A DNA stretch of 64,000 bases from an uncultured Methanomicrobiaceae archaeon. Its GTDB lineage: Archaea; Halobacteriota; Methanomicrobia; Methanomicrobiales; Methanoculleaceae. The DNA lies in the NCBI GenBank assembly GCA_963826525.1, contig CAWGXH010000003.1, positions 192,001 through 256,000 of the forward strand. Reading direction: 5' to 3'. Below, piece after piece: positions 1 through 14,481 of the stretch (the first letter of the stretch is position 1; each line of letters begins with the position of its first letter). The notes under the pieces were generated by a model, which did no database searches, was not told the origin of the DNA, and saw only the letters and a list, made by a program, of their open reading frames with translations. The translations under genes and the position numbers were made by a program.

Positions 1-539
1 CGGCATCGCCGTTCACCCAGTCATACCCGCCGGAGAGGTAGTTTGCCGCAAGGTCGGGGTGGGTATAGTCGACTCCGGTGTCCACGATGGCGATGATGAC
101 GCTCGCGTCGCCCTGCTCCAGGTTCCATGCGTCGTCGGCCCCGATGGCGGCAGGGCCCCACTGGAGGGAATAGTAGGGATCGTTCGGGAGGAACGCCGCC
201 GGAGTGCAGGCATACACGGGGTAGTCCGGCTCGACGAACGCCACGTCGTCCCGGGCCGCCATCTCGGCGATGAACCGGCCGGTATCGTTCACGGAATAGA
301 CGACGGCATTCAGCGGTTCGCAGGTTTCGACCACTGCCGCACCGGCGATCTCTTCGGATACCGGATCGGCAGCAGGGCGCCGCTGCAACCTGCATGCGCA
401 CCGGGGACGGAGTTTTGTAGCCGACGATCACGCGCCCGTGAGTTGCCTCGTCGATGGATGCTGCCGCAACGGCAACGGGTATCAGGAGTATCCCTGCAAG
501 GAATGAAAAGGTCAGTAATCGCTGTATATGGTTGTCCAT
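1..539 (-). CDS. Secreted subtilisin/thermitase-like S8 serine protease, N-terminal part (frameshifted; runs off window)
   Basis: Signal peptide MDNHIQRLLTFSFLAGILLIPVAVAA. Manual translation of bases 190->1 gives LPNDPYYSLQWGPAAIGADDAWNLEQGDASVIIAIVDTGVDYTHPDLAANY, with the S8 catalytic Asp motif (IVDTGVD). Confidence 0.9.
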
Positions 540-784
540 CGCTCTGTTCCCGTTCCGGTCGTTGACATAGTGTCTTTTTGGGTAGGGTATATATAATTGT
601 TCCTTCGGGATACAAGCAGGGAAACTCTGGTATTTTAAAAAATGCGGTATCTTCCCCGGGTGCAGGTGATTTACCCCGATGACCTGCCGCATCAAAAGCG
701 GTATCTTCAGAAAGGATCGGCGGCCCGTGGTGCGCCCTGAAAAATGAGGTGGGGATGAGGATCTTCCCGGTTCTTATCGGACGA

Positions 785-2030
785 TTACTGTCTCTTCCGG
801 GCTACCAGGAGTGCCCCGCCGGCGATCGCTGCAAGCGAAAGCGTGCCGAGGAACCAGGCATCAGGTCCGGACTTCTGGGTCGGCGTTCCGGCTCCCGATG
901 GAGTCTCGCCGGAAGCAGGGGTGTTCGTCGGGCTCTCCGTCACGTCCGGGGTTGCTGCCGCCTCGCCGGCGAAGGTCATGAGGGCGAACTGTCCGGGAGC
1001 GGTGATATCGGCAACGATGGTGTTTCCTTCGATACGGCTCGGGACGATCGTCCAGGTGCCGCTCTCGTATGCGGCAAGGAACGGAGTGGCCGCATCGCCG
1101 TTCAGGTGGAGGGAGAGGGTTGCGGCGGGGCTGAACCGTGCCGATGCGGGCGAGACGACGTAGGTTCCCGCGAGAACCTGCCAGTCGGCGGGCACGTTCA
1201 TCGGGTTCGTCTGGATGATGGCAAGGCTTTCCGGGTTTATCCCGGTGATCGCATCGCGGGCGGCGGTGATCTCTGCAACGCCGTCGAGCGATGTGGCGGA
1301 GACGCTGTCCGAAGGCTCCGGAGTGGTGGTTCCGCTACCGGACGATCCTCCTGTCGAACCGCTGCTTCCGGACTGCGTGGTGCTGTCGGGGATGCCGTGG
1401 GTGTTGCGGTCGGTGTCGCCGTCGGCACTTCGCCGATGACGATGTTCTTATTCACCTCTTCGTTGCCGTTGACGAGGATGATGATCCGTGCCGTCCCCTG
1501 GTCGATCCCCGAGAGGCCGAAGGTTATCTGTGAGTTATCAGGGCCCATCTTCGTCCCGGCTGAGTTCGAGCGAGAAATCGACACTCTCCGAACCGGGCAC
1601 GGCATCGCCGTAGACGCGGAGCAGGTCCATGGAACCGCCTTTGACATCGTCGAGCCCCTGGCGGAGGCTTCACGACATCGTTGCTCGCGATCGCTTCGAT
1701 GCTTTTCGCGGTGCCGCCGGTCTGTGCCCGGAGTCCGGCACGCGTCACCGGTTCGGCACGAACCTGCACGACGGGGCTATTGAGTGAGAAGGGAATATTC
1801 ACGTTGGTGGCCTCGAAACTGAACTCGTCCTGGCCTCCAAGGCTGACTGCGGACTCCATCCGGAGTGCGAACGTGCTGCCGTTCGCAAGGCCGGCAACGT
1901 CAATGGTAACGGTATCGCCGCTCTCAATGTGGTCGGGAGTTATTGTTATGTCGAGGGCCGCTGCTCCTTCCACCGCGCAGAAGGCGAGAAGGATGAGGGC
2001 GCATAGGGTTAGTAATCGTTGATGCTTCAT
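785..2030 (-). CDS. Cell-surface protein: signal peptide, Ig-like domains, Thr/Pro linker, C-terminal TM anchor (frameshifted across ORFs 1524-2111, 1237-1647, 785-1201)
   Basis: N-term MKHQRLLTLCALILLAFCAVEGAAA; PTATPTATPT linker; C-term PTQKSGPDAWFLGTLSLAAIAGGALLVARKRQ (hydrophobic helix plus basic tail, archaeal sorting-signal-like). Confidence 0.75.
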
Positions 2031-2262
2031 GGGACACCCGTTGCAAGAGTATGTAGTCATCTCTATCTCTGTAATTTTATCTAACCTTATCGATATTTTG
2101 CACCCGGTCAAAATGGCTCCGCCTGCCGGTGCGATGTTCTACATCAACAATTTCGAGAAATGCAACAGCAATAACGCTTTTTTTAAGCGAAAGGATTATC
2201 CGGCAACTATGTCTCTCCGGGAGAAAGCCCCGGATTCTTCGGAAATAAAAAAGAAAGGAAGA

Positions 2263-5200
2263 TTAGTTGTTCTTCTTCTCCATGTAGAAGAACGCTGCTC
2301 CCGCCACGGCGAGGATCGCGACGATGGCGATGGCGATCAGCATGAACGGGAGTTCTTCGGTCGGCTGTGTCGGGAGTCGTCGGAGCGACTTCTGTCGGGC
2401 TCGTCGTCACGACTTCAGTGGGGCTGGTCGTCGGCAGGACGCCGGTGGTGTAGACGACCGCGAACATACTGAAGTGCGTGATCGTAGCGGTCACCGTTCT
2501 GGTTGCCGCGTTGACCGTGGTCGGGACATCCTCCCAGGCATCGGTCTCTGCGTTGTACCACTTGATCGTCGGCACCTGGCCGCTGGCGATCATCTGGTTC
2601 CAGTCCTCTTCAGAGAGGGTGGCGGTGAGCGTCATGCCGGGGTCGAAGGTGGTGCCTGCAGGGCCGCACTCATAGACGTAACCGGAGATGCTGAAGACGG
2701 CACCTGCCGGGGCTGCCGGAACGTCGCCTACCCGCTCGATGGTGATGCTGTTGATCGGGTTACCGTCTGCATCGAGTGCACGTACGCCCGCCTGCAGGGT
2801 GAGTTTCGCGCTGTCGTCGTCCGCAAGGACGGCGATTGTCCGGGTCACGATACCGCTGCTGCTGGTCGAGACCACGCCTGTTCCTTCATAGGTAACGACA
2901 CTGTGGCTGCTGCCGCCACTGCCGCCACCGCCGCCGCTGGGCGTGTACGGAGTGGGCGTGGGGGTCGGCGGGGTTGCCTGCACCAGGGAGATGCTGGCCT
3001 GGTTGTAGAGGGTTGTGCTGCCGTTGTTCTCGGTGAACATGTAGAGGTAGTAGTTACCGGCGACAAGGCCGCTCGTTGCGACCTGAACGGTGCTTGCGTT
3101 CGATGCGGAACCGTAATTGCCGTAGCCGGGGGTGATGTAGACGTTGCCGATGAGTTTCTCAACGGTCGTGTTGCCGTTGGCGTAGAGCTTCACGTCCTCG
3201 AGCGATCCGGCGCCGAGGGTCGTGAGGTTCAGCGCCATAGCGCCGGTGTAGATGGCATCCTTGTTGATCAGGATCGCTGCGATGTTCTGCCCGCTGCTGC
3301 CTGCATTGACCACGACGGGGCTGCCGATGGTGTAACTCGAGGCGCTCGGGTTGATGTTCTGGCCGCTCTCGGCGACCTCGAAGGTCTCCATGGTGATGAT
3401 GCTGAACCGGTCCTGGTCGATACAGACCGCGAGGACGATGTATTCACCGGCGCCGAGATCGCTGATCTGGAGCGGGGTGGTGATGCCCGATGCGGTCGCG
3501 GAGTTGAAACCGGTGTCGAGGTCGAGGTAGTTCGCGCGGACCGCGCTCATCAGGTTGCTGGACGCGCTGATGGTACCCTCCTGTTTGAGGATGGTGATAG
3601 AACCGTCATTTGCTACACTGATGATGCCGTAGCCGTACTGTCCGCCACCCTTGCCGTAGAGCACGATCTTGTCCTGGCTGAGCAGCTCCTGGAGCGTGCC
3701 GGCCGTCGGGGAGGCGCTGGACGGGTCGCGCAGCATCTGATCGAGCAGGGTGCTGTTCGCCTTGCCGATCATGATGGTGGCGTTGTCGACGTCGGGCGAT
3801 CTGAACCGCGAAGTCGAGGCTGCCGGTGGGGGTCGCGTAGATCTTGATTGCCGCAGGCAGTTCTCCGGCGGTGACGGGATCGTTCTTCCGGTTGTCGAGG
3901 GTTGCATTGCTTCCCGGAATGATCGTCTTGGTGAACGTGCCGAAGGTCGGGAAGGTCATCGCCGTGTTCGGGCCGGTCAGGGTGATCGCCCGGGCGACGT
4001 CGAAGTAGTTGAAGATCGCGGTCTTCGAGAGATCGATGCCTGCGAAGGTGCCGAGAGAGGCATCGTTGTAGTAGGCGAGATAGTTGTTGTAGAGGTGGAA
4101 CTCGTGCGCTCTGACCCTGGTTGCCCGCGAGGTCGACCGCCGAGACGGTCAGGTTCCGGTTGCCGGGCGCGGTGTTCAGGAAGAGCATGCCGGGGTTTGT
4201 CGTGTTGGTGGCGGTCTCCACCCATGCCTGCTTGAAGTTCGCGTCGGTCACGGTGTAGGAGATGATCAGGTTCTCGTTCGCCTCGACGAACCCGTCACCG
4301 TCGGAGTCCTGGATGCCGGTGATGACGACGACAGGTGCGGTCGTGTCCTTGGTGAAGGTCACGGTTGCGGTCTGCTCGGAGGCGTCGAGCGAGCTCGTGC
4401 CGTTGACGACGACCACGTAGGTGCCGTCCGCGAGGGCTCCGTACGAGGCGTAGTCGAGGGCGATGGCACCGTCGGTTGCGCCGCCGGTGAGCGTGCAGTC
4501 AGCCGTGACGTCGACGGGGTGTAGGGTGCTGCATAGTTCAGTGCGATGGCTCCCTCGGTTACGCCGGTGGGAACCGTACATTTGGAAGTTACATCAACAT
4601 TGTTTAAGAACATCTTCACCGTGCCGCTCGTCACCTGCACGAAGGATGCGGTGATCGGGGGCTGTGCCTGGTTCGTGTAGTTGCCGTCCGCAGGAGCGGT
4701 GATGGTGACACCGGACTCTGCGACAGTGACGCTCACGGAGTCGGTTCCCGGGTTGCCGCTAATGTCGTCAGCCGTGACTACGATCGGTACGTTGCTGCCG
4801 GTATTGACGTTGCTCTTGGTGGCAGTTACCTGGTATCCGTCGGCAATGGCCACGGTGTTCAGGGTGTCGGCTGCCTGGCCGTCGACGGTGACGGCGATGC
4901 TGGACAGATCGACGCCGCCCATATCGGTGATGTCGGCAACCACAGTTACAGTCTGTGCGACGGTTGCGCCGTTAGCCGGAGATGTGATGGTGACGGTCGG
5001 ACCTACTTCATCCTGTGTTTTAAACGTACCGTTACGAATGCCGCCGATGAACTCATTTGTGATAATACTCGCTGATCCATCGGTGATCTCATTTGCGATC
5101 AGTCCGACAGCGGTCTGGCTCCCGTCATTTTTGAGGCTTTCTGCAACTACGGAACAGGCGATACTGCGGTTTGTGCATCCACTGATCCGCCGCCCGAAGC

Positions 5201-5501
5201 TCCGAGGACAAGTGTTGCCGTTCCGGCATTGTTATCGATGACCTCTCCATACTTTTGCCACAATCCTCCTACGATGAAACTGTTCACCTTCATCACAGTG
5301 GGCTTGTAGGTTACGGTAATATCGACTGAGCCGAGACTTTTAGTACTGTGCTGTACTTGCACGTCGAGATTCAGCTGTTGTTGAAATCTTTACATCTGTT
5401 GCATTACTAATTGTAAGTTCTTGAGCAACCGCGCCGGTTACCAAGAGCGGAATGAACAGTAAAAACAGCGTGAGGAAGATTGTTCGATTCACTCGAGTCA
5501 T
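2263..5501 (-). CDS. Large membrane-anchored surface protein: N-terminal cohesin-like module, Ig-like repeats, S-layer-like C-terminal domain, TM anchor (several frameshifts)
   Basis: Signal MTRVNRTIFLTLFLLFIPLLVTGAVA. Cohesin-like LGSVDITVTYKPTVMKVNSF...IDNNAGTATLV. PTVTITSPANG Ig repeats; PTPTP-GGGGGS linker; C-term FMLIAIAIVAILAVAGAAFFYMEKKNN. Confidence 0.75.
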
Positions 5502-5524
5502 AATTTTTTGTCACCTCTCTATAT

Positions 5525-6328
5525 TTATAGCGATTTCCTTTGATGGTAAATAAATCCTGCGAAAATAATCGAAATCAACAAAATTTCCATGGATATTGGG
5601 AGGCTGTTCGATTGGGTTGCAGTTGTTTTTTCCTCGGCCGAATGTGCTGTCTCAGATTGCCCTGAGGGGGCGGTGCTCTCCTGAACGGGTTTTGTTTCGG
5701 TTGCCGAGGGGCTAATCGATTCCGTTGTTCCCTGGCTGGAACCCGTTGAAGTTATGGTTGTTTCAGGCGTTTTTGGCGTAGGAGTTCCTTGTAAATCCGT
5801 ATGCTGACCGGCTGAGGATGGGTTGGAGGTTATCGGGGTTTCAGACGGCTGCGTTCCTGCTCCGGGCGGTACATATCCCGGGCTACTTTCATATGGTGGC
5901 AGTTGCGTTTTTGTGGGCTCTGGGGTTATATCCGGGACATAGTTTTCACAGGTTACCGGGTTTGCGTCGTAGTCGTACAATTCACGAACTATGACAGTAA
6001 AACTGCCGTCCCCTTCATAGTCAAATTCTGCCAGAGGTACTGTTGTTACCTGATTCGTAGTCGGTAAGAGCAAATCCACCTATTTTGGTGATGCCACCGG
6101 TATTGTTAATGTCGGTAACAATCCCGAAAGTGGAGTCTCGTGAACCTTCTGAACCGCTGCTGGTGCTTTATACTGCAACTCTACGAAATAAGCACCGATT
6201 CGCTCGGGGCTATCTGCCTGATAGATTATCCTTCCGGCACCATCCTGCCCTTCGAAAATCACTGAACCCGCTGAGCATATAGTGATCAGGGCAGAAATTG
6301 CACAGATTAGGGCAAGTTGTCTTCGCAT
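5525..6328 (-). CDS. Small membrane-anchored protein with putative cohesin-like domain and Ser/Thr/Pro-rich stalk (frameshift near 6080)
   Basis: Signal MRRQLALICAISALITICSA; IGAYFVELQY...TTVPLAEFDY beta-rich domain; long S/T/P linker; C-term LPISMEILLISIIFAGFIYHQRKSL. Confidence 0.65.
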
Positions 6329-6356
6329 ATTCTTCTCCTCAAAAAATATGGTGGCC

Positions 6357-9300
6357 TTAAAGAGGTTGGTAGAATGCGTCTACGGTGTTGAACCTCTTTT
6401 TCACTGCAAGGAATGCGTCTGCAGTTGTAATGCTGCCATCATTGTTGACATCGCCATAGAACGACTGGTTTTCGGTGAAAACTACCTGGTTGAAGCGTTT
6501 CTTCACCATCAGGAATGCATCTGCGGTGCTGATGGTGCCATCTCCGTTTACGTCACCCCAGAACCGTCCCCCAAAGTCGAGATAGATCTGATCGATATCT
6601 CCGGTATCAACATTGTTCAGGATGAACTGGCCGTTCTCGATGGCGTAGTCGGTGTATGCAAACCAACCGCTTGCATTGTGCACCATGCACGGTGATATCG
6701 TCATTTACGTATGATCGATTCGTCGGTTACCGGTGGTAAGTGTTCTGCTCGCTTCGGGAGGTCAACCGCAATCGTCGCCAGTCCGCCGCTGCTCGAGATG
6801 CTCGAGTTGAACGACATCATGGCTCTGGTCGCGGCACTCCAGCGGTTGGTACTGCCGTTGCTGATCGTCTCCTCGACCGCCGGCGGCATCACGCGTGCAC
6901 TGCCGCTCGCACCCTCGATCTGCGAGATGTGCGGCAGCGTGCGGTCGGAGACGAACTGGGCGCTGTAGGTTGCGGTATCACCGGGCGTGACGGTGATGGT
7001 GGTGTTCACCCAGGAGGTCTCGTTCCGGATTGCGACGGCGTAGGTGCCCTCGACCCTCTTTACCGAGGCGGTGTTGGTGTTCGCTGCGACCGATGCGCCG
7101 TCGACGTAGAAGTCGGCGAGCACTGCCGCCCCGTTTCATCGACTGCATCGAGCGTGATGTTTCCGTAGCCCTTGATGTAGGTTGTCGTGTCGGCGACGGC
7201 CATCCAGGTGTCGTTGTACATCGGGTAGGCACGCGCTTCGACCGAGTTGTTGCCGTAGACCTCGAAGGTCAGCGGCACGTAGAAGGTCTTGCTCGCGTCG
7301 GCAGCGACACTCGGCTTCGATTCGTCATCGGAGCCGGGGTAGACGTAGAGCTTTCCGGTCGTGGCGTTGTACATGTGGTTGATGTAGGTCTTCTGGCCGC
7401 TGTTGTGGTAGTACGCAGCATTCGAGCCCGTTGCACTGCCCGTGAAGTTCACGCGTGACGTGATCGGGATCTCGATGATCATCGTCGTCTGATCCACCGC
7501 TCCGGGGCCGTCGTTGTTGATCGTGAACTCGACGTCGGCCGTATTGCCTTCGACGAGCGTGTATCCGCTGTTCGGGATGGCCACGTCGAGCGTGAAGTCG
7601 GTTGCGATCGGGTCGATGAACTCCTCGGGGATGGTTGCGAACGCGATGGACTGCGGCACCTTCTCGAGGCTCTTGACCTCGACGAAGAGTTTCGCCTCAT
7701 CTACGGTTCCGACATCCGATTTGCCGGAGACGATCACCTGTGCCGTGGAGTTGGCGGAGGGGACGTCGTAGAGTGCGGCCACCTGAGTCGGCGGTGAGGG
7801 TGTAGACGTACTGGAAGTGAGCGTTGTCGAATGCGACGTCGTTCTGTCGACCAGATGCTGTCGCCGTCGCCGTTAATCAGTTCCGCATCGACGGTGAAGT
7901 CGATGGTCGCGTGCGGCTGCACCTGGGTTAAGGTGTTGATGACGACCGCGGTCGCTCCGGGTGCTGCCCCAGCCCCAGCTGCCCTTGGCGCCGAGCAGGT
8001 AGCGGACACCGCCGGCGACCGTCTCGTTGTCGGCGCTCAGTCCGGACTGGTTCAGTGCAAGGACGGCGTGTGCCGTCTCCTCGGCTCCCCAGCCCCAGGA
8101 GTACGATCCGGCTGTTCCAGAGGTCTTCTGGTTCAGGAGTTTCGTCTGGAGGGCGGCGATGGTGCCGTTGATACTATCTGCATCGCCGAGACCGTGGTCG
8201 CGGATGGCGACGAGGCCGTAGATCCCGTGAGCGACTGCCTGCGCGCCTTCGTTGTTGTAGTTGTGGCCCTGGAGCCAGGTGAGCGACTTTGTCGAGCGTG
8301 GCGTTAACCTCGCCCTGCATGGTGGCGTTGAGGTAGGGGTACTCGTTTGCCAGCGTCTCGCTGATGAACCCGGTCCACTCAACGTCGTTGTAGATGTAGC
8401 CGTACTCGGACCAGCGCCCGTCGGCCTTCTGCCGCTGGGTCAACCAGTTCGCACTTGCATTCAGGTCGATCTTGTCGGGGGTGAAGGCGACCGCACTGCC
8501 CCAGTAGGCGGGGTCGTCGTCGTTCAAGAGTTCGGTGATGACGTAGTCCGGGTAGAGCGTGTAGAACGCAGACGGGGTCGAGTACGTGCCCCATGCCCAT
8601 CCGCCGGATCCGTCACCGTACGACTCGCCCGCGAGCTGCTGGGCGTTGTAGCCGTCCGGTGCGCTCATCCGCGCGATGGCATCCTGCATGTTCTGCTGGA
8701 AGGTGGCGTTCATCGCGTCGGTCAGCGCCCCGCGCTGCTCGTAGTACTGCTTGACCCTGAGGATGGCGAGCGCCGGGCTCATCGTCTGCTCGGGGCATCC
8801 GTGCGGGTAGCCGACGAGCTGCTCAAGGCCGTTCAGCGTTCTGCCTTCCGCTCCTGCGGCGAGGGTCACGGTGACGCTCTGCCCCTGCGACGGCGACCGG
8901 TTGAAGACGTCGAAGGTCACCGTATCACCGGCAGTGTCGGCGATCAGGGTGCTGTTCGTCACCTTGATGTCGAGGAACGGCTCCCGCACCTGGATGGTGC
9001 CGTTGACGTAGTCGGACTTGCCGCGTGCCTCAAGGCTGATCGAGTAGGCGAATTCGCCGAGCACCTTCGGTCTGATGTAGTACCAGGTCACGTAGTTCCA
9101 GTCCGAGTCGTAGCAGTACGTGCTGGAGCTTCGCCGGGTAGTAGTAGTAGAGTTCGAACGGTGAGTTCTGTGACAGGTCGACCGGCGTTCCGTTCGCATA
9201 CCAGATGTTCAGGGTGGCGTTCGGCCGTGCTGCCTGGTTTGCGGTGTAGTAGGTGCTGAGGGGAGGTATTCGTTGAGATACGGGGTCTTGTTGTAGTGGT

Positions 9301-12267
9301 ACCAGTACTCGTAGTAGTTCTCGTTGGTCGTGGTGATCTCGAGGTTGAACGGCTGGATCACGGTGTTCTGGGTGGCAACATTCCCGATGGGCTGGTCGTC
9401 GCCCGAGATCTGTGCTTTCACCTCGTAGGTGCCGGGCACCAGGGGCTTCCAGGTGTTAATGGTGTAATACTTGCTCGCGTAGGCTCCGAGCGGGACGTCC
9501 GAAGCCGACCAGATCTCGGTGCCGCCGACCGTCACGTTGACATCGACGGCGACGGGGTTGCTCTTCGCGTTCCAGACGCTGACCGAGATGGTCTGGTTGT
9601 ACCCCTCCGAACCCTGCGTCGGGACCTGCAGGTTCACGCGTGCATCGGAGACGTTCTCCTGCGTGTACAGGCCTTTGGTGATGCCGAGGTTCAGGTAGTT
9701 TCCGCCGGTCGTCTTGACGTAGGCGTCGGTCTGCGAGTCGAGGACGGTCGATCTGCCGGAATCGGCTCTGGCTTTCAGGGTGATCTGGGCTACTTCGGTG
9801 TTGCCCTGGATATCGAGGTTCGTCCCGGTGATCGTGACCCGTCCGTACGAAAGACGACCAGCCGATACTGCTCCTCCGGTCGTCACGGCGGATACGTAGC
9901 AGACGCTCGGGTCGTACTTGATCGGGAGCGAAAACGCCGTGATCGGTGCCGAGACGTTCGTCAGCTGGACGGAGAGGATTGTATCGGACGACGTCGAGCC
10001 GCTCACGCTCGGCAGGATGACGGTCACCGGTGCGTAGGACTGGTAGTCGGTCGTGACGCGTGTTGTTGGTCGTGTCCGTCTCGGTCTCGGCACCGTCGCT
10101 GTTGACCGTGACGGTGAAGGACTTCGCACTGCTGCCGATCGAAACACCGGTCAGCGTCTGCGTCCAGGTCTCGCCGGGCTGCAGGGCGGGAACAGTCGTA
10201 GATGGTGCTTGCACCCTGGTTCGTGAAGTTGAGTTTCGTTGCGACCGCGTAGACGTTGCCGATGTTCCTGACACCGTAGGTTACGTTGTAGGTGCCGGGC
10301 ACGACCTCTTCCTGGATGGTGGTTCCGCTCGACGGGATACCGGCGGTCAGTTCGGTCGAGAGGACCGGGATGAGATCGGGTTTCGTGATGCTTGCGTGGT
10401 GGGTGACGTAGTTGTTCTCCTCGTTGACCTCCTCGACTGCGTTGTCGACGTCGATCCCAAGGCCGATGTCGTAGTTGCCGACATTGATGTCACCGCCGGT
10501 CGTGATGACGTAGGTGCTCTCCCATCCCGATCCGCCCATGACGACACTGTGTCTCCGGATAGCCGGGGATGACGTTCATCGTCATGTGGTAGGTGATGTT
10601 CGCACCGGCGGCGATGTCGTCGGTGATGGTGATGTTGGTCTTCTGGCTCGCCGAAGCCTCCCTCAATCTTGAAGTCATCGGTGACGGTCTCGGTGCCGAT
10701 GTTCTCGATCACCATGGTGGTCGTGAATTCGAGGTGGCCGTCCTTGTACTTCTTGATGTACTCGGGGGCGTCCACGAGGTAGCCGCGGAGGTCCGGGCCC
10801 GACGGCGGGACGATGGTGACTTCGCCGTCCACGATGCTCGCGAACGGAGTGCTGATCGTCACGTTCTCGCGGGGGCTGCGCCACTTCTGGATGTGGTAGG
10901 ATGGGGTGAATTCGGTCTCTTCACCGATCATCGTCCGACCGCCTGCATTTTGAAATCGGCGAGCGGCGTGACAGCGATGCCGTGTTCAGTCCGCTCATAT
11001 TGCCGAAGAATGCCAAGACGGAGTCTGTACCGTGTCCATACTCGTTTATCCACGCGCTCGTCGAGTCTCACGCCGGCGCCTGCGGCGGTCTGGCTCAGCG
11101 TGATGTTCTCGACGTTCGTGAAGGTCACGATGGAGCTGTTGTAATTAGGAGTTACAGGTCATCTCGTCGACCGGTCCCAGGTCCTGCACGGAGAGCGGGA
11201 GCGTTTTCTGGTTGCCGACGGTCACGGTGCCGTTCGGTAGACGTGAGTATGCCGCGGGCTGCCGGGATGTTGCCGCCGGATGCGGTGATGATGCCGTTGA
11301 CGGTCTTGTTGAACTGGAAGTCCCAGTATGCTCGCGCCGACGTCGCCGCCGGACTGCAATCTGCTCGATGAGACCGGTGTTATAGAGATCGCTGGAGCCG
11401 GTTCCGTAAGATCCGTATATCGACGGTCTCGGTCTCGCCCGCCTTGTCCGTCGTGCGGATAGGTGATATCGACGATCGGTGTCGACTCCGAGACGGTAAG
11501 CCCGTCGGGTGCGATGATCCAGGCATTAACGTAGCCTATCGTGAGGAGTACTCGCCTTCGAGGATTCCGTTGCATGCCGCGATCCCTGTGAGAGGATAAC
11601 GCCCTCCGGCATCTCCGGGCTGATCTGCATATCCTCAACGGCGATGTAGGCCGCATCGAACTCCATCTGGATCCCACATCGAGGTCACGTCCGTCAGGTT
11701 TGCAACCTCGACGCTGAAGGTGCCGCTCTGCCCGGAAGCGAGACTCCCGGACGGCGCAGTCGATCATCGACACGGGTTCCTGCGTCGACCGTGAACGTGC
11801 CGTTGACGGTGGTGACCGGGATACTCGGCGCCGCCTCCATCTCTTCAAGGGAAGCGACGAGGTTCAGCGGGCTCGTCTCCCCGGCAGTGCCGACAGCCCG
11901 GAGAGTCACATTGCAGACCTTCACCGTGCCGGTGAGCTCGGAGCCGCTGATCTGCAGTCCCCCGATGGTAACCTGGCCGGTCGTATTGTCGATGTGGTAT
12001 ATCGGAGTGTCGAAGTCGCTCTCCGATAGTGCATCGACATAGACCACATCCGGATCGTACGCAGGACCGACGTCGCATGTGGCGGCGGATGTCGGAAGAT
12101 CGTTGATCATGATCGGTACGGTCATCGTTCCGCCCGGGAGGGCCGCGGCGTCACCGATAGATGACGGTGGTCGCCACGACCGCGCCCGCTGGCAGAATGA
12201 TCATTGCTACCAGAACGAGTAGCAATGGCAAAATTTTAGCGGTATTCTTCGCTTCTTTTTCAGTCAT
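6357..12267 (-). CDS. Giant secreted multidomain protein (~1,950 aa reconstructed): ~4 cohesin-like modules, CARDB/Ig modules, alpha-2-macroglobulin-type thioester domain, C-terminal dockerin (many frameshifts)
   Basis: Signal MTEKEAKNTAKILPLLLVLVAMIILPAGAVVA. Cohesin-like TVPIMINDL..YDPDVVYV..IDNTTGQVTI..VCNVTLRAVG and ITAFSLPIKYDPSVCYV..VAQITLKA. CARDB-like GPDL..VIENIGT and KPDL..VRNIGN..ETDTTNN. LEQLVGYPHGCPEQTMSP. Duplicated dockerin loops GDVNGDGTISTADA / GDVNNDGSITTADA. Confidence 0.8.
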
Positions 12268-12751
12268 ACTCTTCCACCTCAAAAGGATTTCTGCGGAAGG
12301 GAGCGGTTGTGCTCGAATGTAGGGAGATGAGAAGATCATCTCTTCAGGGATGATAAATACGTTTCTATTTGGGAAATCTCTTCAAATTTGGTTAAAACGA
12401 ATTTATGCTCTATATTTAAGCCCGGTTCCGATGGCATCCACTCCGGACTTCCTGCGCCATGGACCCTCGAACCGTACGTGTTCTGTCCGAAAAGTTTCCT
12501 TCCCGCTCCGTATTCTCCGGTTTCGGGCGATGAGGTGGCCGGCGCACCTCCCGAAGAGTACGATGCAGATTCGTGCGTGGTAGTCGCAATTGCCGCTTCC
12601 GAATCTGCATAAAAAGGTATCCGGGCGGAGCTCTCGTGTTCCCGGAGAGACCCGGTCTCCCGGAGCCTTTTTGAGGCAGGAACACGTGGATATCGTATCC
12701 TCCCGTCCGGAGATATCTTTTTATTCGATCATTCAGATATGAGATAACTGA

Positions 12752-13733
12752 ATGCCACCCGACGCACCTGCCGACACGCTGATCACTGCACTGAACCCGC
12801 GGGCGATTCCTCTCGATCTCGCGATCATCTACCTCTGGATCCTCGCAACCATCCTCGGCATCTACCTCCCCGTCCTCAACACCAGTTTTCTCCGGGTGCT
12901 CTTCGCGCTTCCCTTCATCCTCTTCATCCCCGGATATCTCCTGATCGCCGCGCTCTTCCCGAGGAACGACGATCTCGACGGCATCGAACGCGTCGCCCTC
13001 TCGTTCGGGCTCTCCATCGCGGTCGTCCCGCTGATCGGGCTTGCCCTGAACTACACGCCGTGGGGTATCAGGCTCGATCCGATCGTCGTGTCGCTCCTGA
13101 TCTTCAGTGCCGCAATGGGTCTCATCGCCCAGTACCGGCGCTCCTCCGTCCCTGCCGGCAGAGCGGTTCGTCGTTCCGTTCGGCGAAGCCGCCGCTGCCG
13201 TGCGGGGAGAGTTCTTCAACAAAGATGCCCCCCGTCTTGACCGGGTCTTAAGCATCGTGCTTCTCGCGTCGATCCTGGTCGCCGTCGCGACGACCGTCTA
13301 CGTCATAGCCGTTCCGAAAGAAGGGGAGAAGTTCACCGAGTTCTATATCCTCGGGTCGAAAGGAATGGCTGCGGACTACCCGACCGATTTTGCCGCGGGA
13401 ACAGGGCAGACGGTGATCATCGGGGTAGGGAACCATGAATACCGGAACGTCACGTATACCGTCGAGACCCTCGGGCTTAATCAGGTCTTCAATGAGACGA
13501 CGAACGAATCCGCGATCCTCTCGTCGACGTCGCTCGACCGATTCACCGTGACCGTGCCGCACAACGAGACCGTCGAACAGCCTTATACCTTCACCCTCAC
13601 TGACCCGACGGTGAACCGGGTGGAGTTCCTCCTCTTTGAGAATCCCCCGGCAGACTCGGTGACCGCGGCCGAGCGGATCAACGCAAGTTACCGCGACCTG
13701 CACCTCTGGGTCAGGGTACGACCGACAGGATGA
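12752..13733 (+). CDS. DUF1616-family membrane protein (frameshift ~13150)
   Basis: LFIPGYLLIAALFP...IERVALSFGLSIAVVPLIGLALNYTPWGI; EKFTEFYILG..GMAADYP; YRDLHLWVRV. Confidence 0.85.
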
Positions 13734-14481
13734 GCCGGAGCGTCCGGTTCTTCCGGTCCGCCGTCGCCTGCTCGATGGTGCAGGCTTTTCCGGTTCCTTT
13801 TGCCAGCATGCACGCGATCAGGCTGCAGACCGGGCAGGGGCACATGGTGCATGCCTTCGGGGACTCCTTTCGGATCTCCATGCACCCGTCGATGAGCCGG
13901 TATCCCCGGAGTTCGACGACGATCGAGTCGCCCGCCCGCGATGCCTCGACCGTCTCCGCCACTTCGAGGACTTCTTCGCAGACCTCCCGGATCGCTGCCA
14001 GCACCTCGTCCTCCTCGCCGGGGAGCCGGAGATCCGACGATGTTTCGAGCAGCCTGAGCAGCGGGTAGCCGAGCGGCGGTATGACAACACCGCTGCCGTC
14101 ACTGCCGGTCTGCAGTGAGAACCCGTCGGTCGACTCGATGGGCTGGTACGACGAGGCCGGGATCACCTGCATCACCGACGGGCCTGGTGCATCCTCTGCG
14201 GCGGGGACCATGTATGCATTCCCCTTGATCCCGAGGTCGGCGCAGATCCGGGCGATATCGAGGGTGCCCTGCACCGCAAGGAGGCTTGTAAACCGTGTAT
14301 CGAGCGCCTCCTCTTTCGAGAACGTCAGGACGAAGACGCCTGCGATGAAGCTGCTCACCGCCCCGAGCACCAGGGTGGCGCTCGTCATGTCGCCCCGGTT
14401 CGTCACCGCAACGATTACCATGATGACGGCCGCTGCGGCAAAGAGGGCGACTGCGGCCAGGGTATATTCGCTCTGTTTCAT
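13711..14481 (-). CDS. Hypothetical membrane protein with C-terminal Cys cluster (CxxxPCPxC)
   Basis: 256-aa ORF with two N-terminal TM helices and CTMCPCPVCSLIAC; overlaps the upstream gene in the operon. Confidence 0.7.
   Translation of the reverse strand: MKQSEYTLAAVALFAAAAVIMVIVAVTNRGDMTSATLVLGAVSSFIAGVFVLTFSKEEALDTRFTSLLAVQGTLDIARICADLGIKGNAYMVPAAEDAPGPSVMQVIPASSYQPIESTDGFSLQTGSDGSGVVIPPLGYPLLRLLETSSDLRLPGEEDEVLAAIREVCEEVLEVAETVEASRAGDSIVVELRGYRLIDGCMEIRKESPKACTMCPCPVCSLIACMLAKGTGKACTIEQATADRKNRTLRLILSVVP

Follow-up and report, generated by a model that had tools for sequence, protein, structure and literature searches.

What does a methanogen do with a set of cohesin and dockerin modules that is gathered around a protein with a complement-type thioester domain (TED)? 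The question is raised by the first 12,267 nucleotides of a 64,000-nucleotide stretch of DNA (hereafter the window; G000:C3:192001-256000) from an uncultured Methanomicrobiaceae archaeon, whose genome assembly, G000, comprises 3.06 Mb in 16 contigs. An earlier note on the window had described five co-oriented genes here, which we call A to E. All five are on the minus strand (5/5), and the cluster is intact in relatives. The main observation of this work is that three modules, the C-terminal dockerin of A and the N-terminal cohesins of B and C, constitute a hypervariable cassette that is co-inherited. We lean towards reading the locus as a two-tier, cellulosome-style, non-cellulolytic cell-surface assembly with a thioester effector, a reading that we place somewhat on the probable side.

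Positions 1-12267 of the window are coding on the minus strand, and the long reading frames are all interrupted. The architecture was taken from intact orthologues, and coordinates in the window are given by mapping. The genes, with lengths in amino acids (aa), are:

6357..12267, minus strand: gene A, start codon at 12267, stop at 6357-6359, about 1970 aa after frame repair
5525..6328, minus strand: gene B, start codon at 6328, stop at 5525-5527
2263..5501, minus strand: gene C, start codon at 5501, stop at 2263-2265
785..2030, minus strand: gene D, start codon at 2030, stop at 785-787
1..539, minus strand: 5' part of gene E, start codon at 539, the rest lying beyond the window start

A close orthologue of A was found in 7 of 41 related genomes, G000 included, by a search with the TED piece. 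In the six relatives it is a single open frame of 1700-1996 aa, and six A orthologues could be aligned end to end. The whole cluster is intact in G001 (Methanoculleus taiwanensis, a relative of the same genus) and also in relatives from Methanoculleus, Methanoplanus and Methanocalculus; the M. bourgensis MS2 genome is G014. The earlier note had allowed that A might fall apart into unrelated proteins once the sequence was polished; the intact orthologues hold cohesins, TED and dockerin in one frame.

The putative docking modules of A, B and C

The three modules of the cassette are placed in the window as follows (E, expectation value; ORF, open reading frame):

6360..6599, minus strand: C-terminal dockerin of A (Dockerin_1, E 1.9e-11, ORF 6357-6704)
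about 5950-6270, minus strand: cohesin of B, N-terminal, after the signal peptide
about 5000-5420, minus strand: cohesin of C, N-terminal, with a weak Pfam Cohesin match in the window at 5147-5389 (E 1.6e-3)

The dockerin of A, of type I, has two Ca-loop/helix repeats, DVNGDGTISTADAFLMVKKRF / DVNNDGSITTADAFLAVKKRF, and both D-x-N/D-x-D-G loops are conserved. In the B orthologue of G001 (260 aa), a signal peptide is followed by an N-domain of roughly 110 aa, then a Pro/Thr-rich linker and, at the C-terminus, a transmembrane helix. No Pfam match was obtained for the N-domain of B, and sequence and profile searches of the PDB gave nothing meaningful for B or C. The domain in B was read as a cohesin because three approaches agree. 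In hhalign it matched the local cohesins at 83%, and the ESM Atlas model of G001 B superimposed on cohesin clusters with a TM score of 0.72-0.79 by query. A profile of 31 B domains, searched over 1.84 billion proteins, retrieved 120 representatives, mostly of 235-280 aa and with the same layout, as well as a 2059-aa protein in which the 14 matched stretches are 14 Pfam cohesins; Pfam Cohesin was present in 7 of 9 tested multi-stretch matches. The B-like proteins fall into 42 clusters, annotated as hypothetical only. In the C orthologue of G001 (1047 aa), the signal peptide precedes an N-domain of roughly 140 aa; Big_7 Ig domains come next, then a large region (about 500 aa) outside any assigned domain, and finally a C-terminal transmembrane helix. 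The N-domain of C matched the local cohesins in hhalign at 96% (E 3e-9), and the C orthologue of G007 exceeds the Pfam Cohesin cut-off with 28.1 bits; in the six C orthologues scanned whole, Pfam Cohesin was undetected (6/6). On these comparisons we class the N-domains of both B and C as cohesins. The description of B and C as membrane-anchored proteins with N-terminal cohesin-like modules, given in the earlier note, is thus borne out by their transmembrane helices together with hhalign, profile and Pfam support.

Sixty-two loci were compared, 9 from genomes, 47 from metagenomes (fetched with the A alignment) and 6 from relatives. They were searched with hidden Markov models of five modules: the A backbone beside the dockerin, the A dockerin, the B cohesin, the C cohesin and the C Ig region beside the cohesin. 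All five were found, in the order A-B-C, in 39 of the 62 loci, 34 of them distinct, and the remainder were mostly contigs ending early. B begins a few bases after A. Two loci, L030 and L031, hold distant TED homologues of about 32% identity, without dockerin, B or C.

Two observations concern the cassette. Firstly, its modules vary together. Over the 34 loci the pairwise distances correlated at 0.80 between dockerin and B cohesin, 0.85 between dockerin and C cohesin and 0.91 between the two cohesins, whereas the correlation of cassette modules with the directly adjacent backbone was 0.30-0.55; with the backbone accounted for, partial Mantel tests gave r 0.74-0.88 (p<=0.0005, 2000 permutations), figures that overstate independence, given the kinship among the loci and the adjacency of the modules. 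At 60% identity the three modules were sorted into 16, 15 and 16 types as against 6 backbone types, and the type assignments of the cassette modules agreed with one another (adjusted Rand index 0.78-0.97) but not with those of the backbone (0.09-0.15). Secondly, closely related loci differ where the cassette lies. Most of A is 96-100% identical between G007 and G012, but the A dockerin and B cohesin only 54-58%; onward, the B linker is 83% identical, the C cohesin 57-63%, and identity then returns to 85-98%. G000 and G001 have flanks of 82-97% identity, while window positions 6747-4886 reach only 35-60%. These two independent close pairs differ only in the cassette modules. Conversely, the G001 cassette is 75-90% identical to those of four lineages whose backbone is 53-60% identical. 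The dockerin in the window is closest to that of M. bourgensis (60%, against 43% to G001), and so is the C cohesin (41%), while all the other window modules are closest to G001 (78-88%).

The two dockerin repeats evolve in concert, with an identity of 0.68 within a protein against 0.30 between proteins (n=31; L034 was dropped for absence of the registration motif, and four rows are visibly mis-registered). The Ca-loop residues are fixed, and the variable positions lie in the two helices. The docking of A on B and/or C, as proposed in the earlier note, is indirectly supported by the gene order in 39 of 62 loci and by the strong co-variation of the three modules. As to which of the two would be the socket, the C cohesin is the slightly better tracker of the dockerin, and the layout and position of B would fit a dedicated anchor.

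A separate feature of the cassette is its base composition. Its GC content lies 8-10 points under that of the flanks in 34 of 34 loci (means 0.48, 0.46 and 0.46 for the modules, 0.56 and 0.54 for the flanks), and in window 4886-6747 it drops to 0.48 versus 0.62.

Scaffold protein A and its thioester domain

The intact A orthologue of G001 is 1971 aa long (L011:11487-17399). From the N-terminus it consists of a signal peptide, three cohesins or cohesin-like domains (Coh1-Coh3), an Ig/CARDB domain, a CARDB domain, a fourth cohesin (Coh4), a CARDB-like domain, an MG7/CUB-like segment, the TED, four beta domains and the dockerin. The sole hydrophobic segment is the N-terminal signal, and there is no transmembrane anchor. 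Before the dockerin, the window holds the following parts of A:

11787..12161, minus strand: cohesin 1 (Pfam Cohesin E 2.3e-8, residues 14-138 of ORF 11694-12200)
10800..11732, approximate owing to many frame errors, minus strand: cohesin-like domains 2 and 3 (hhalign of orthologue alignments against local cohesins)
10050..10512, minus strand: CARDB Ig domain(s) (Pfam CARDB E 1.6e-8 and 8.9e-4, window fragments)
9740..10027, minus strand: cohesin 4 (Pfam Cohesin E 9.5e-8, ORF 9209-10150)
7887..8947, minus strand: TED with GYPHGCPEQTM (Pfam TED_complement E 8e-8, ORF 8174-9208)

In G001 A, Pfam recognized two Cohesin domains, CARDB (E 1.4e-16), TED_complement and Dockerin_1, and the same set was present in 15 of 15 further members of the A family that were scanned, a subset of 52. 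Two of the four cohesins of A pass the Pfam cut-off; Coh2 and Coh3 rest on hhalign, by which they are cohesin-like with probabilities of 81% (E 1.2e-5) and 90% (E 1.5e-6), respectively. Coh1 and Coh2 are missing from the shorter A forms of G007, G012 and G029. The architecture that had been proposed from the window, with about four cohesin-like modules, stands as to secretion, CARDB, CxEQ TED, dockerin and want of a transmembrane anchor, and its cohesins divide into two found by Pfam and two found by profile only. NCBIfam gave no match for A, B, C, D or the neighbouring protein F described below (F at E<=0.01). Among viral contigs, the A dockerin of the window found only a 14-residue Ca-loop match, and the A alignment no relative.

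The codon of the thioester Cys is at window 8795-8797, and G-C-P-E-Q is invariant in 52 of 52 aligned family members. TED_complement exceeded its cut-off for the window, for G001 and for all 15 relatives scanned (15/15), with coverage of the model up to 17-309 of 312. Searched against the PDB, the profile of the 52-member family matched complement C3 (E 7.7e-7), C4, CD109 and A2ML1, and also dockerin and CARDB structures. Homology also covers the roughly 100 residues that precede the thioester, where the pre-TED profile aligns with the MG7/CUB segment of CD109 (801-933, E 7e-5) and with A2ML1 910-981 (E 2.7e-5). By these profile matches we take A to be a TED-bearing relative of the alpha-2-macroglobulin (A2M)/TEP/C3 superfamily, in which CARDB Ig domains seem to occupy the place of the A2M bait and MG cage. 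A relation to the TIE/TED adhesins of Gram-positive bacteria was considered and dropped, as the match is to the alpha-helical, complement-type TED.

Cargo, proposed assembly and alternatives

The visible part of E in the window is:

1..539, minus strand: signal peptide and start of the S8 domain of E (Pfam Peptidase_S8 E 2.3e-4)

The remainder of E, in L017, gave Peptidase_S8 (E 4.5e-22, another piece 2.9e-9) and Dockerin_1 (E 9.5e-10). The G001 orthologue (578 aa) covers S8 positions 3-288 of 288 (E 9e-63) and bears a dockerin, its sole hydrophobic segment being the N-terminal signal. Against PADLOC, E gave generic subtilase/IetS matches only. Thus E is an S8 protease as it had been called from the window, and its C-terminus, which the earlier note had marked for a look beyond the window, carries a dockerin at G000:C3:190833-191000.

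G000 contains seven Dockerin_1 matches, scattered over the genome, and three Pfam cohesins, all at this locus. Contig C1 (13.8 kb) and C4:549000-556000 (L020 and L021) carry near-identical genes in opposite orientation, a PKD-dockerin gene included; the dockerin matches on C1 and at C4:551758 are probably one gene assembled twice, and the true count is possibly below seven. Six of the seven, E and five others, end in ...AMYLAKH.LGIPGFE.LH, and the A dockerin differs. The carriers in G000 have PKD, NosD/beta-helix and Big_13 domains. Of the 7 dockerins of M. bourgensis MS2, 6 are clustered in the roughly 28 kb upstream of A, beside an F-like cohesin, and are borne by NHL/Kelch/SBBP propeller-PKD proteins and an S8 protease. 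No glycoside hydrolase or carbohydrate-binding module was found among the dockerin proteins of G000 and the 8 scanned proteins of this G014 island, which agrees with the non-cellulolytic cargo assumed in the earlier note, and a true cellulosome was dropped as a reading for want of carbohydrate-active cargo. The island itself (L080/L081, G014:C1:2206000-2232000) encodes NHL, Kelch and SBBP propellers with PKD, DUF3821, DUF7948 and an S8 protease, and most of its cargo genes end in a ...ADFNGNGAVDIGDAAKIAYYFVGKIEAL tail.

Proteases recur beside A. In many loci the gene directly upstream of A encodes a MAM-S8-dockerin protease, and a homologue of one of the two S8-dockerin protease types was present in 19 of 62 loci, many others having too little flank. 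The metagenomic protein P0050 (3390 aa) has neither cohesin nor dockerin and is a natural fusion in which an InhA-like MAM domain and an S8 protease are joined to four CARDB domains and a TED. In G007, the protease type of P0050 bears a dockerin and adjoins A. The combination of S8, CARDB and TED in P0050 links E to A and suggests a shared complex for protease and TED protein.

Two further proteins belong to the surroundings. F (330 aa in G001) consists of a cohesin, a PGF motif and a helix and adjoins the cluster just beyond the window. In G000 it lies at C3:190328-190714, with Pfam Cohesin above cut-off once, and its C-terminus, ...AAPGFSIWLALAGVLL..RR, has the look of a PGF motif with helix and basic tail. 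D (416 aa in G001) has a signal peptide, conserved beta-rich domains and a C-terminal transmembrane helix. No Pfam, NCBIfam or PDB match was obtained for it, so that of the "anchored Ig protein" of the earlier note the signal and the anchor stand and the Ig assignment, with 0 Pfam and 0 PDB matches, does not. The D homologue of Methanocalculus taiwanensis (L015:12308-13162) has a dockerin-like tail in place of the transmembrane helix, and in G000 a D-like N-domain precedes a PKD-dockerin gene (L018:4247-4759).

The proposed assembly builds on direct observations of the domains present, their topology, the synteny, the co-variation and the fusion protein; the pairing of dockerins with cohesins, and all thioester action, we infer. 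In the first tier, B (signal, cohesin, Pro/Thr linker, transmembrane helix) and C (cohesin, Ig, transmembrane helix) would present their N-terminal cohesins from the membrane, and the internally symmetric C-terminal dockerin of A would plug into the cohesin of B and/or C. The plug-and-socket set is hypervariable, co-inherited and represented by many allelic types, and therefore a given A probably fits its own anchors only. In the second tier, the two to four conserved cohesins of A, and the cohesin of F, with its putative PGF-CTERM anchor, would receive a second, more conserved class of dockerin, found on the S8 protease E and on beta-propeller, PKD and beta-helix proteins elsewhere in the genome. 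The effector would be the C3/A2M-type TED, displayed by A in its MG7/CUB-like context. It would most likely be activated by proteolytic cleavage, the obvious candidate being the S8 protease of the same assembly, and the activated CPEQ thioester would then bond covalently to a nearby nucleophile, so that the complex or its prey becomes tethered to the cell surface.

A bolder version of this proposal, which we consider distinctly unlikely as it stands, is an archaeal complement-like and strain-addressed capture system. The scaffold-bound S8 protease would act as a convertase, targets would be covalently tagged or glued, and the cassette would serve as a lock-and-key address. If this were true, possible targets would include partner cells, competitors, viruses and particles, and the released scaffold of each strain would return only to cells with a matching anchor allele. 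Where methanogens live in dense communities, this would amount to self/non-self discrimination or to 'privatisation' of a secreted good.

Several points weigh against the two-tier assembly. The region of A after the TED had no PDB match in the profile search, and A2M, MG2, A2M_BRD, bMG10 and A2M_recep were found in 0 of 15 members, in neither G001 A nor the window fragments (Pfam, E<=0.01), so that a bait region and cage of A are unproven. The cohesins of B and C are dissimilar (hhalign 11.6%), which is odd if both bind one dockerin face. L034 has a different dockerin, yet similar B and C cohesins, and in one case two B/C types go with a single dockerin cluster. The cassette modules are contiguous, and block recombination alone would correlate them; the far weaker correlation of the adjacent backbone and the conserved B linker (83%) are suggestive counter-evidence to this. 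Finally, the copy in the window is translatable only after frame repair.

The alternative that survives best concerns the effector and leaves the assembly unchanged. A could be an anchored protease trap, a tethered suicide inhibitor like the bacterial A2Ms, which captures foreign proteases attacking the proteinaceous S-layer; the cohesin-dockerin parts would merely hold A at the surface, and the S8 protease would be cargo unrelated to TED activation. Bacterial A2Ms are membrane-tethered guards of the envelope, which fits such a role, as does the homology of the TED to A2ML1, CD109 and C3, the pre-thioester junction included. Likewise, the ESM Atlas clusters nearest to A by language-model features were all bacterial A2M families (scores 0.76-0.79, a lead only). 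On the other side, no bait-region or MG2/A2M/bMG10 domain was detected in the 15 members scanned, a natural S8-CARDB-TED fusion such as P0050 would be an odd union of inhibitor and target, and the S8-dockerin protease homologue is a recurrent neighbour (19/62). We regard the trap as unlikely, and protease-triggered covalent tethering or capture is favoured over it because of the fusion protein and because no bait region is detectable.

Linkage without binding is quite improbable in our view. Here the cassette would be a hot spot of recombination or diversification, of exposed virus-receptor epitopes for example, and the A dockerin would bind F or a cohesin that escaped recognition. The contiguity of the modules would be accounted for, the low GC in all 34 loci is expected of often-exchanged DNA, and the match between dockerin and cohesins is broken in L034. 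The breakpoints, however, follow the module borders, and in G007/G012 the B linker is conserved between two variable modules. Moreover, helices that vary around fixed Ca loops, in repeats that change jointly, form the pattern to be expected if binding specificity changes, and F and the cohesins of A are conserved where the dockerin is swapped.

The last of these points also bears on self-polymerisation, raised in the earlier note, in which the dockerin of A would bind its own cohesins and form chains. A does bear both kinds of module, but its cohesins evolve with the backbone of A and not with the dockerin: in the 19 loci with complete A, Coh3 and Coh4 correlate at r 0.86-0.97 with the backbone and 0.28-0.44 with the dockerin, and between G000 and G001, Coh1 and Coh4 are 78-82% identical against 43% for the dockerin. 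Chains of A are therefore very improbable.

The frame breaks in G000 could also be real and the locus a decayed array of pseudogenes. Frame changes are many: tblastn with the intact G001 proteins gave at least 14 in A, 4 in C, 1 in D and 1 in E, and gene B is interrupted by an in-frame TAG (6080-6082), with about 35 residues of its middle part out of frame. However, the DNA alignment of window 1-14369 to the same-genus relative has 78 non-triplet gaps, chiefly 1-nt insertions, and the stretches between breaks keep 82-97% identity to the intact relative. Similar splits occur in unrelated genes of G000, among them the neighbouring DUF1616 gene, a ligase-like gene (three frames) and several ABC ATPases. 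Since unrelated genes are split alike throughout the genome and the marker completeness of the 16-contig assembly is just 87.6% (contamination 5.3%), the breaks point to a genome-wide assembly artefact rather than decay of this locus, and the pseudogene array is hardly credible. Examples of such indels are at window 12752-13730 (DUF1616) and C4:680097-681418, and the assembly looks unpolished.

On the upstream side, window 12400-34000 looks unrelated to the cluster. It holds DUF1616 (plus strand), DUF58, DUF4350, a GntP permease, a DNA methylase, an RsgA GTPase, an Na/H exchanger, a PAS histidine kinase, TetR, an LCM methyltransferase and Fe-ADH. Downstream of F, two overlapping frames at L017:4603-5960 (G000:C3:188602-189959) match Arch_flagellin PF01917 (E 8e-24 and 2e-25), which points to archaellin- or pilin-like genes adjoining the cluster.

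Known systems and meaning of the locus

In the cellulosome hierarchy, the dockerins of enzymes bind to the cohesins of the scaffoldin, and the dockerin of the scaffoldin binds to the cohesin of an anchoring protein. The locus resembles the clostridial cellulosome in its Pfam Cohesin and Dockerin_1 modules, in a multi-cohesin scaffold that is itself dockerin-tailed, in separate one-cohesin cell-bound anchors, and in two dockerin classes with two symmetric repeats per dockerin. It differs in having no glycoside hydrolase or carbohydrate-binding module among the dockerin proteins scanned, in anchors that end in a transmembrane helix or a putative PGF-CTERM and not SLH or sortase, in the thioester domain on the scaffold, in the hypervariable anchoring tier and in its methanogenic archaeal host. 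With E. coli ECAM/YfhM-type A2M and C3, protein A shares a TED with CxEQ and a homologous pre-thioester junction. It would be membrane-tethered as in ECAM, though through its dockerin and not a lipid, and associated with a serine protease as in C3. Unlike bacterial A2M and C3, A has no detectable bait region or MG2/A2M/bMG10 and carries cohesins, and E is an S8 subtilase, unlike the trypsin-like C3 convertase.

Archaeal A2M/TEP homologues were described from Halobacteria and Methanomicrobia as secreted proteins with Ig/CARDB domains and a TED with intact CxEQ, whose genes sit among those of surface proteins and endoproteases (Makarova et al., 2021, PMC8416519), and A shares secretion, Ig/CARDB domains, TED and intact CxEQ with the homologues described there. 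The main text of that paper contains neither 'cohesin' nor 'dockerin' and, as far as it goes, reports no C-terminal shuffling of these homologues, whereas in A the C-terminal dockerin is the shuffled part. Scaffoldin-like proteins that combine a single dockerin with as many as 5 cohesins were described from anaerobic methanotrophic archaea (ANME), in text that proposes surface organisation and cell-cell interaction and names ABC substrate-binding proteins as cargo (Chadwick et al., 2022, PMC9012536). The present system shares with them the archaeal dockerin and multi-cohesin proteins and the non-cellulolytic cargo, and differs from them, as they are described in that text, in the thioester domain, the anchor cassette and the co-variation. 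A full-text search, with subscription papers outside it, gave no paper joining cohesin-dockerin with a thioester/A2M protein and none on Methanoculleus dockerins. The statement in the earlier note that no system of this architecture has been characterised thus holds for the searchable literature, while parts of it are published in the texts of PMC8416519 and PMC9012536. New here is that the A dockerin, B cohesin and C cohesin form a hypervariable, co-inherited cassette across 34 distinct loci.

A split variant of the locus was seen in seven relatives (G002, G015, G020, G021, G022, G031 and G036) and not in G000. In it, a cohesin and dockerin protein of about 1770 aa stands beside a cohesin, TED and dockerin protein of about 1277 aa (G002:C3:111996-116334). 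Because this variant occurs in seven other relatives, the theme of cohesin, TED and dockerin is, by predicted domain content, widespread in Methanomicrobiales. A contig of 4980 bases labelled Candidatus Nanohaloarchaea (L029) has an A-like TED protein of 30% identity and, after it, a dockerin ORF and an ORF that matches the profile of the C-type cohesin.

To our knowledge, the cohesin-dockerin modules of archaea have posed a puzzle since 1999, and no role has been assigned to archaeal thioester proteins. The present locus unites the two. A-B-C is conserved intact and operon-like in cultured methanogens, namely M. bourgensis MS2, M. taiwanensis, Methanoplanus endosymbiosus and Methanocalculus spp., and the system is therefore bench-testable. 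The matched cassette alleles are a natural panel of about 16 orthogonal putative binding pairs, of use as protein-assembly parts and for studying the evolution of cohesin-dockerin specificity. Should the thioester be active, the locus would encode a prokaryotic, surface-organised relative of covalent capture by complement and A2M, with a candidate activating protease attached, and it would bear on the attachment of methanogens to syntrophic partners or on the defence of their protein envelope in digesters.

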